A stretch of 34,734 nt of DNA from a virus. Its lineage: Duplodnaviria > Heunggongvirae > Uroviricota > Caudoviricetes. The position numbers were made by a program, and so were the translations under genes. The notes beneath the pieces were generated by a model that was not told the DNA's origin, ran no database searches, and saw only the letters and a program-made list of their open reading frames with translations. Shown piece after piece: positions 2,843 through 4,230 of this stretch. Position 1 is the stretch's first letter; every line of letters begins with the position of its first letter. The stretch lies in the IMG/VR virus record IMGVR_UViG_2531839454_000020, one strand, 5' to 3'.

Positions 2843-2856
2843 TTGACAGTTGTCAA
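2843..2856. promoter_or_regulatory. inverted repeat of TTGACA half-sites (TTGACA-GT-TGTCAA); candidate operator and/or minus-strand promoter -35
   Basis: Perfect inverted repeat; on the minus strand TTGACA (c2856..2851) is followed after 17 nt by TATACT (c2833..2828). Confidence 0.3.
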
Positions 2857-3051
2857 TGCACTTGACCTAAGCGAGAAATGACTATCAAAATTTTTGTGTG
2901 AAAATGGCGGATAACGATTATCAACCTTTATAACCTATTATAGCACGGCGACCTTTTGATAATTCTTTTTAAATCATGCATTTACAGCGATTTTTGGTGA
3001 TTTTCCGGTTAAATAATATACAAGAATTTTCTATCAAAATTTTTGATGAAA

Positions 3052-3169
3052 AACCTACACTACAAACCTACGCTTTAAAGGGATTGGCCTACACTAGTCA
3101 GTAAACCTACACTATAACACCCTCAAACCTACACTATGAAACCTACACACCTACACTAACCCTACACTT
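3052..3169 (+). repeat. array of 7 to 8 same-orientation CCTACAC(TA) direct repeats, irregular spacing
   Basis: CCTACAC at 3054, 3089, 3106, 3127, 3142, 3150, 3161 plus variant CCTACGC at 3066; most preceded by AAA. Confidence 0.7.
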
Positions 3170-3513
3170 CAATCTCATAAGTGTATGATCTTGAAAGACA
3201 TTTCACCCCACAGACCATAGAATATAAAATTCGAACTAACGTTCTCCTTTTTGCTCGTTTTCTCTCACTACGTTCAAGAAAGATCTCGCAAAAAGAATAC
3301 GGCGTAGCCGTGCGCGAAGCGCCCATCAACACCTTCTAAGACCTGCAAGCAGGATTCGAAAGGGATTGGATAGTTCGCTTCGCTCACGTTCACGCCTACG
3401 GCGTTCACTCGCTTTTGAAAGGATTTTCTTAGAAAGGGATTTAATACTAGTTACTAACTGATTCTAGTAAACGAACGAAGTGAGTAACAATCACTTTCTA
3501 GAAAGGTATTGGT

Positions 3514-3542
3514 ATCCCTTCGGGATTGCAACCTTCGGTTGC
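3514..3542 (+). other. two adjacent stable hairpins (atccc-ttc-gggat and gcaacc-ttc-ggttgc)
   Basis: Back-to-back stem-loops with UUC(G) loops, separated by 1 nt, in non-coding DNA. Confidence 0.5.
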
Positions 3543-3670
3543 TAAATTGCTTCCTGATTATAATTTCTCCAAAAGAAAGATTCTTATATTCTAAAGATAC
3601 TTCTTCGTTTTGATGATGATTTAATCAAATATATGAAGGAGGGCTTTAGCCCGACTGAATCCAATCACTT

Positions 3671-3724
3671 CCAAATAGATAAAAAATTCTCGTTATAAAT
3701 AATAGTGAACTTACTTGATTCACT
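3671..3724 (+). promoter_or_regulatory. conserved promoter-like element CCAAAT-N17-TATAAATA-ATAGTGAA plus inverted repeat (copy 1 of 2)
   Basis: CCAAAT 3671..3676, TATAAATA 3694..3701, AGTGAA 3704..3709 pairing with TTCACT 3719..3724; second copy at 30451..30515. Confidence 0.45.
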
Positions 3725-3745
3725 TTCTTTTAGAGGATTTCCACT

Positions 3746-4195
3746 ATGATCAATACTAAAACTCCTTTCGTACTTCTGGGTCTGGACTCTGAAAACTATG
3801 GCAACTTCCATATGCTAGAAGTTTTCGCTAATCGTGGTTATAACATCATTCGTCATTCCGAAGACTCCAACTACTCAACTGCTTTCTACGCTTTAAAACG
3901 AAATGGTCGTCCTACTGTGATCATCGACTGTTTTACTGATGAAGGTCGTCTTCAATACAACGATATTCCAGCAATTATTGTTCGTGATGATCTGCCGTTT
4001 CAAGTCCGTGAATATGACGTTGATTTAGGCTCTTACTATGGGATCGCCGATCTTGACCAGATTATGGCTGATTACGGTAAAGAAACCGCTCAGGAAGCCC
4101 CAGAACAAGATGAGGAAGACGAAGACTACGCACCAATCGCTTTCTCTTCTCACGGTGGCTTCTACGGTTACGATGAAGGCTTAGATATGCTGTAA
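3746..4195 (+). CDS. hypothetical protein (149 aa), acidic C-terminus
   Basis: ORF with AGAGGA SD; C-terminal EAPEQDEEDEDYAPIAF. Confidence 0.55.
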   Translation: MINTKTPFVLLGLDSENYGNFHMLEVFANRGYNIIRHSEDSNYSTAFYALKRNGRPTVIIDCFTDEGRLQYNDIPAIIVRDDLPFQVREYDVDLGSYYGIADLDQIMADYGKETAQEAPEQDEEDEDYAPIAFSSHGGFYGYDEGLDML

Positions 4196-4230
4196 GTTAG
4201 GTCAACCCTTTGACGTCTTGTCAAGGGGTA

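Follow-up and report, generated by a model that had tools for sequence, protein, structure and literature searches.

A prophage element of ~36 kb that interrupts hicB in Escherichia coli PE15 and PK8568 is represented by the IMG/VR record IMGVR_UViG_2531839454_000020, whose whole length of 34,734 nucleotides is called the window here. In its control region, two predicted sigma-70 promoters are accompanied by inverted repeats containing TTGAC words (Table 1). The leftward promoter, P_left, overlaps the palindrome of site 1, and the rightward promoter, P1, lies beside the repeat of site 2, past the gene ORF149. A preliminary description of this DNA had reported TTGACA-GT-TGTCAA at 2843-2856 and CCCTTTGAC-GTCTT-GTCAAGGGG at 4206-4228, and both are present exactly so. 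It had also placed a promoter beside site 2, which was confirmed as P1, starting 2 nt past the repeat, while P_left had been missed. Promoter activity is inferred from the sequence here, and start sites are predicted from the -10 positions, near 2821 for P_left and near 4266 for P1.

Three matches to the sigma-70 consensus at 11 of 12 positions occur in the window. P_left and P1 are the only intergenic ones in 34.7 kb, and the third (TTGACA-18-GATAAT, 16632-16661, minus strand) is antisense within a gene for a 1136-aa tail-fiber-like protein. Throughout, the window was compared with related loci taken from viral contigs, assemblies and complete genomes.

Table 1 Positions of the features discussed, in order along the window.
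Feature	Position	Strand	Remark
gp59, single-module paralogue	2306..2485	minus	First gene past P_left
Predicted P_left leader or small RNA, about 155 nt	2665..2821	minus	-36.7 kcal/mol, z -2.2
P_left, TTGACA-17-TATACT, 11/12 sigma-70 promoter	2828..2856	minus	Promoter scan
Site 1 palindrome, TTGACA-GT-TGTCAA, putative operator	2843..2856	none	Arms kept in relatives
Unit U1	2843..2869	plus	At site 1, 0 mismatches
ORF149, acidic protein	3746..4195	plus	Transcript would end at the site 2 hairpin
Unit U2L, TTGACAA-N12-TTGACCTA	4198..4224	minus	Upstream of P1
Conserved stem-loop of site 2, inner stem 4206-4214 / 4220-4228	4201..4235	plus	Fold and relatives
P1, TTGACA-17-TATGAT, 11/12 sigma-70 promoter	4231..4259	plus	Promoter scan; ahead of ORF110 and the Rha/Ant-like gene
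Unit U2R, TTGACAA-N12-TTGACCTA	4268..4294	plus	Initial transcribed region of P1, about +2 to +28 from the predicted start
Rha/Ant-like protein, sole annotated regulator of the window	4738-5580		
gp77, single-module paralogue of gp201 and gp59	5729..5962	minus	
gp201, two tandem ~55-aa helix-turn-helix-like modules	5991..6596	minus	Candidate DNA-binding protein
Large serine recombinase, 564 aa	31588-33282	minus	

The TTGAC words at the two promoters are clustered beyond chance. The pentamers TTGAC and GTCAA are under-represented in the window overall (50 observed vs ~80 expected from a first-order Markov model), and three of them fall within 2843-2866 and six within 4201-4291. Among 400 Markov simulations, none placed four pentamers in 35 bp or six in 100 bp, and one contained two clusters of at least three pentamers in 25 bp.

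These words recur at both promoters as a bipartite direct-repeat unit of 27 bp, TTGACAR-N12-TTGACCTA, with an inner word TTGACAR and an outer word TTGACCTA. The window contains three mismatch-free copies (U1, U2L and U2R). No further match was found at three or fewer mismatches, and 0.01 copies are expected at one or no mismatch. U2L and U2R are mirror images about position 4246, which lies halfway along the P1 spacer. Two concentric and perfect 8-bp inverted repeats, TAGGTCAA/TTGACCTA and TTGTCAAG/CTTGACAA, are centered there; this is the sole such axis in the window, and none of 40 simulations gave one. The N12 gap is fixed in length, while its sequence differs between the copies and among relatives. 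Such a variable gap of fixed length is typical of a two-part protein-binding site, and the units are candidate sites of this kind. As for the two repeats first described, the site 1 palindrome consists of the inner word of U1 and the -35 hexamer of P_left, and in the site 2 hairpin the gap of U2L pairs with its inner word.

U2L and U2R reside in a module at 4196-4311, which extends from the ORF149 stop codon to the ribosome-binding site of the next gene. Its identity in all relatives is 89-95%, even where ORF149 falls to 68% DNA and 52% protein identity, and the gene downstream is one of three unrelated types. Nearly invariant within the module are AGGTCAAC, TGTCAAGG, the -35 and -10 hexamers, CTTGACAA at 4267-4274 and TTTGACCTAGATTTGTAAAGAGGATGT, and variation is seen in the loop of the hairpin, in the first half of the spacer of P1 and in a patch at 4275-4286. 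The 5′ untranslated region of the P1 transcript is unstructured as RNA (z +0.95), so the conserved words past the start are more likely read as DNA. TTGACA at 4268 and TTGACC at 4287 were considered as promoters and rejected by eye, lacking an acceptable -10. An invertible promoter was also considered, as 8-bp repeats flank P1, and was rejected with a single orientation in 32 E. coli haplotypes and three Salmonella loci. The module is confined to this prophage family (52 of 5,426 E. coli genomes), and the 131-bp P1 module has no DNA match in deposited phage genomes.

At site 1, the scan match is on the minus strand, so that the -35 hexamer of P_left (2856..2851) coincides with the right palindrome arm, and the -10 hexamer TATACT follows at 2833..2828. 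The left arm lies early in the spacer, and the palindrome spans the -35 and the first 8 spacer nt. Spacers of sigma-70 promoters are normally free of sequence constraint. A promoter equivalent to P_left was found in all relatives, and TTGAC-N4-GTCAA is kept in all E. coli alleles other than the B alleles and in three Salmonella lineages. Its arms show only three single-base departures (TTGACT, AGTCAA and TATCAA), whereas the central dinucleotide takes seven forms (AC, TC, AG, AT, TG, GG and GC). Upstream of the -35, the DNA is unrelated between lineages that keep the palindrome. The conserved arms, the free center and the position over the -35 and spacer fit a putative operator for a dimer. 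The earlier notion of an operator overlapping a -35 element suits site 1, where it applies to a leftward promoter, and does not suit site 2. The third pentamer (2862) is not kept as GTCAA or TTGAC among relatives. A rightward promoter using the left arm was rejected by eye, again for lack of an acceptable -10.

At site 2, the 9-bp hairpin described before corresponds to the inner stem (eight Watson-Crick pairs and one T.G), but the true stem is longer, 14 bp in all, with 4201-4214 pairing with 4220-4229 and 4232-4235. The outer pairs are formed by GUCA (4201-4204) and UGAC (4232-4235), the latter inside the -35 hexamer of P1. The predicted fold has -19.2 kcal/mol on the plus strand (z -5.3) and only -14.7 kcal/mol on the minus strand. 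The inner stem begins 11 nt past the ORF149 stop codon, and the extended stem 6 nt past it.

The left arm of site 2 reads TTTGGC in the other 31 E. coli haplotypes, except for TTTTGC once. A4213, the source of the left TTGAC, is private to the window, as G is present in 31 of 31 other E. coli haplotypes, and the A turns their G.U pair into A-U. The relatives depart from perfect DNA symmetry at two pairs, each of which is G.U on the plus strand and A.C on the other strand. Haplotype L010 has a compensatory C>A / G>T pair in the stem; across 14 haplotypes, 98% of cells are paired, with this one compensatory change. Three Salmonella relatives have a hairpin at the same place (-17 to -20 kcal/mol). 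Their 5′ arms differ (CCCCTTG, CCCCCT and AACACTTCT) and all pair with the constant 3′ arm ...CAAGGGG, a register shift that sequence-based alignment cannot follow. Because of the TTGGC in relatives, the G.U pattern, the compensatory change and the shifted Salmonella arms, site 2 appears to be a conserved hairpin specific to the plus strand rather than a pair of TTGAC half-sites. Leftward promoters from GGTCAA or TGTCAA at site 2 were rejected by eye, with no acceptable -10.

With moderate confidence, we take the best explanation of the whole to be an operator at P_left (site 1), a hairpin at site 2 and 27-bp units bracketing P1. A dimeric protein on site 1 would deny RNA polymerase access to the -35 and spacer of P_left. 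This would turn off the leftward transcript, which would comprise the leader or small RNA and then gp59, gp331 and gp80. The site 2 hairpin would mark or stabilize the 3′ end of ORF149 mRNA, and would partly insulate P1, 2 nt downstream, as a leaky terminator. The 27-bp units, which are better candidates than the site 2 repeat, would let a phage protein silence P1, which would drive the anti-repressor-like Rha gene.

Several findings weigh against this explanation. The 14-bp palindrome alone is not unusual, as 18 of 100 shuffles match it at one or no mismatch, so its support comes from conservation. The remaining P_left spacer (GGATTATTT / GAACTATTT) is also conserved, so that a conserved spacer arm does not point specifically to an operator. 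In E. coli B alleles and in Proteus, the leftward promoter is just as strong and lacks the palindrome; in the B alleles the spacer contains an ACCTAC iteron instead. The outer word TTGACCTA at site 1 is degenerate or absent in several alleles and absent in Salmonella. At P1, one of the three Salmonella relatives has both units, one the upstream unit only, and one the inner TGTCAA and TTGACA words only; the outer words are lost in L053 and half lost in L054. Thus, the bipartite unit is not universally required. The Salmonella losses leave a deeply conserved core, which is hairpin-TGTCAA, 6-7 nt, TTGACA (-35), 17 nt, -10, 7-8 nt and TTGACAA.

Further points of this kind concern the hairpin and its surroundings. 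Hairpin covariation is not significant, with 75 of 500 shuffles reaching the observed score, because the E. coli relatives are close and their variation is shallow. In the tail past the stem, UAUUGACA, a U-tract is absent because P1 has its -35 just 2 nt beyond the inner stem. Site 2 is not listed by a terminator scan that needs at least five T in eight, and the Salmonella tails are similar (UGUUUGAC and UAUUGAC). Without a U-tract, termination may be poor. The terminator role suggested earlier is plausible, with a hairpin beyond the upstream gene, and non-canonical, for want of a U-tract. The hairpin would then serve the 3′ end or the stability of the mRNA and terminate leakily at best. In addition, no repressor family, CI/Cro-type included, is recognizable among the window proteins (Pfam and PHROG).

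The same features could arise with no dedicated regulator, a possibility to which we give a minor but appreciable weight. TTGACA words would be -35 hexamers or sequence resembling promoters within AT-rich control DNA, a terminator hairpin beside a promoter would give rise to the symmetry and the repeats as by-products, and the conservation would result from recent ancestry or linker recombination. Two of the words are indeed -35 hexamers themselves, a palindrome like that of site 1 is not improbable alone, the E. coli relatives are close, the module lies at a mosaic junction, and B alleles and Proteus do without the palindrome. However, three perfect 27-bp units against 0.01 expected, and two concentric 8-bp repeats centered on P1, are hard to obtain as by-products. 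The module is far more conserved than both neighbor genes, and a hypervariable central dinucleotide within an otherwise fixed palindrome is seen across genera. Besides, the words found at +2 and +21 do not form promoters, and the 5′ untranslated region lacks RNA structure.

In the reading of the preliminary description, both palindromes would be operators of one dimeric regulator, with inverted TTGAC(A) half-sites overlapping the -35 elements. Both repeats do adjoin 11/12 promoters, the TTGAC words are strongly clustered, and site 1 is conserved and operator-like. On the other hand, the two palindromes space their half-sites differently (TTGAC-N4-GTCAA at site 1 vs TTGAC-N5-GTCAA at site 2), and local alignment of the two regions gives no similarity past short words. 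Site 2 as such an operator is contradicted by its spacing, by its left half-site, which owes TTGAC to the private A4213 and is not TTGAC in other E. coli haplotypes, by the end of the repeat before the -35, and by a hairpin whose G.U pattern is strand-specific. Between TGTCAA and the -35, relatives have either 6 or 7 nt, which argues against TGTCAA-N6-TTGACA as a rigid dimer site. One regulator acting on both palindromes is therefore unlikely.

Site 1 could instead be a box for a host protein of the CRP/FNR family, TTGA-N6-TCAA centered near -28.5 of P_left, with anaerobic repression by FNR in the gut. The consensus of FNR is TTGAT-N4-ATCAA. All alleles that bear the palindrome keep TTGA-N6-TCAA with a free N4 center, allele L047 has the exact FNR half-site ATCAA, and the hosts are enteric. 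Nearly all alleles, however, have C/G and not T/A at position 5 (and 10), and TTGA-N6-TCAA occurs five times in the window with no enrichment, which reduces the FNR box to a lead that we hold to be improbable. One of the five is a perfect FNR consensus, TTGATACCAATCAA, at 32501-32514 inside the integrase gene, and is probably there by chance.

Two other mechanisms appear very improbable. One is an RNA switch in transcripts reading through from ORF149, where UAGGUCAA (4198) would pair with UUGACCUA (4287) and UUGUCAAG (4218) with CUUGACAA (4267) in competition with the hairpin. Both 8-nt complementary pairs exist, and the substitutions in TTGACCTA (A>G in L002 and C>T in L040) would keep wobble pairing, although this is weak evidence because any A>G or C>T does so. 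The predicted fold retains the local hairpin and not the long-range helices, the ribosome-binding site is untouched, and transcripts initiated at P1 lack the upstream partners. The other, to which we attach just as little probability, is that the -35-like words act on RNA polymerase through sigma-70 region 4. TTGACC, followed directly by TAGATT, at +21 to +32 could be a promoter-proximal pause site of the lambda PR′ type or a loading site for an antiterminator. This pair (4287-4298), -35-like beside -10-like, is nearly invariant, but no Q-like gene was found among the window proteins, the element is farther downstream than known sigma-dependent pauses, and Salmonella L053 and L054 do without it. 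TyrR-like, NarL-like and MetJ-like sites were dropped, as relatives do not keep the bases or spacings in question.

If the units and site 1 are bound by a phage protein, as the explanation with an operator, a hairpin and bracketing units would have it, candidates for the binder can be sought among gp59, gp77 and gp201. Homologues of these three small paralogues, which look helix-turn-helix-like and have no Pfam or PHROG family match, are present in E. coli, Shigella, Salmonella and Proteus. A role of gp201 is attractive as a guess, because its two domains match the two words of the unit in number; a gp201 variant of 51% identity coexists with unchanged units. gp59 was rejected as the binder of the palindrome and is unlikely in this role, because alleles with the palindrome in common differ in its putative recognition helix.

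We conceived, quite tentatively and with more doubt than belief, that this prophage family without CI/Cro may control its main promoters by the helix-turn-helix proteins gp59, gp77 and gp201 reading the -35-like TTGAC, each domain of gp201 taking one word. If so, P1 would be clamped between two units, P_left would be shut by a related palindrome, and the repressor would compete with sigma-70 region 4 for the -35-like words.

Known systems share parts of this layout. Like the OR/OL operators of lambda and 434 and the operators of P22, site 1 is short and palindromic, keeps its arms around a free center, and lies over the -35 and spacer of an early promoter, within a divergent control region of a prophage. 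Unlike these systems, no CI/Cro-like gene was found here, there is one palindrome instead of a tripartite operator, the half-site is the -35 consensus itself, and some alleles lack the palindrome. With gal OE/OI (GalR) and lac O1/O3, the P1 region shares inverted copies that flank the promoter, here centered at about -55 and +15 and symmetric about the promoter, although each site is itself a 27-bp bipartite direct repeat and the separation is only 70 bp. Like intrinsic terminators, site 2 is a stable G+C-rich hairpin past a stop codon, conserved with changes that preserve pairing, but its tail is UAUUGACA instead of a U-tract, while other genes of the window have canonical terminators.

Iteron replicons were also compared. 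As in the inverted repeat of pSC101 RepA and the operator of F RepE, an inverted repeat over a promoter adjoins a direct-repeat array (3051-3172), and the controlled operon varies in step with the iteron type. This comparison failed, because the half-site TTGACA shares no word with the iterons (AAACCTACACTA; ACCTACAC iterons) nearby; in addition, no Rep homologue was recognized.

The non-coding DNA around P_left contains other elements. The predicted P_left leader has three hairpins, the last of which (2670-2691) is followed by U5; B-type alleles also have its 5′ hairpin (GGGGUUG...CAAUCCCC), at another position. The stretch at about 2660-3410 exists in at least two non-homologous allele types, and gp59 and the downstream protein of 313-331 aa vary in step with the allele type. 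In the window, seven iteron copies of AAACCTACAC(TA) occupy 3051-3172, in place of which B-type relatives (L036:6560-6750) have eight copies of TTTTTGCCCCTGAAA. These repeats might represent an origin of replication or, alternatively, an array for terminase binding (cosB-like). A G+C-rich inverted repeat, GGCGTAGCCGTGCGCGAAGCG ... CGCTTCGCTCACGTTCACGCC, lies at 3290-3400 amid AT-rich non-coding DNA; its core words are common to both allele types and its flanks are unrelated, and it is possibly a cos or origin element. Upstream of ORF149, 3409-3745 is non-coding, has no Rfam match and shows conservation across all allele types. Two UUCG-tetraloop hairpins are found in it at about 3514-3550, along with repeats of the words GAAAGG(G/T)ATT and CTAGTTACTAAC. 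Rfam families gave no match at any point of the window.

The DNA at 2500-4700 is present in 58 of 5,426 complete E. coli genomes (about 1%), chromosomal every time, and has no match among 50,697 deposited phage genomes. ORF149 has homologues, with 52-100% identity, in E. coli and Shigella only, and a scan of genome contigs for ORF149 gave no match. The gene content includes a lambda-type gpA terminase, a lambda-family portal, a protease-capsid fusion, tail genes and an M15 endolysin. No replication protein or antiterminator is recognizable among the window proteins. Integration into hicB runs via the large serine recombinase. The nearest deposited phage terminase, 43% identical, is in a 141-kb record filed under Straboviridae (L001; PQ671644.1, Escherichia phage DCP80), whose opening genes resemble the siphovirus-type head module of the window; this record is perhaps a chimera.

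The insertion of this prophage, lying between lysN and hicB, was labeled an 'incomplete phage-like region' in a paper on chromosomal mcr-1 (PMC7700713), and a search of the literature for hicB prophages led to a paper on LF82 that is unrelated. In PE15, an ISApl1-mcr-1-pap2 transposon is located in the left arm of the prophage. The prophage is widespread in E. coli, Shigella and Salmonella and has carried chromosomal mcr-1, yet it is unstudied.

Overall, the arrangement is an ordinary layout of promoters, operator and terminator in an unstudied prophage. The overlapping palindrome and the intergenic hairpin are ordinary biology, and the sole unusual part is the 27-bp units bracketing P1. Because the prophage has no recognizable repressor or replication genes, the map of promoters, operator and hairpin provides a first handle on how the prophage is silenced and on which of its proteins deserve testing.

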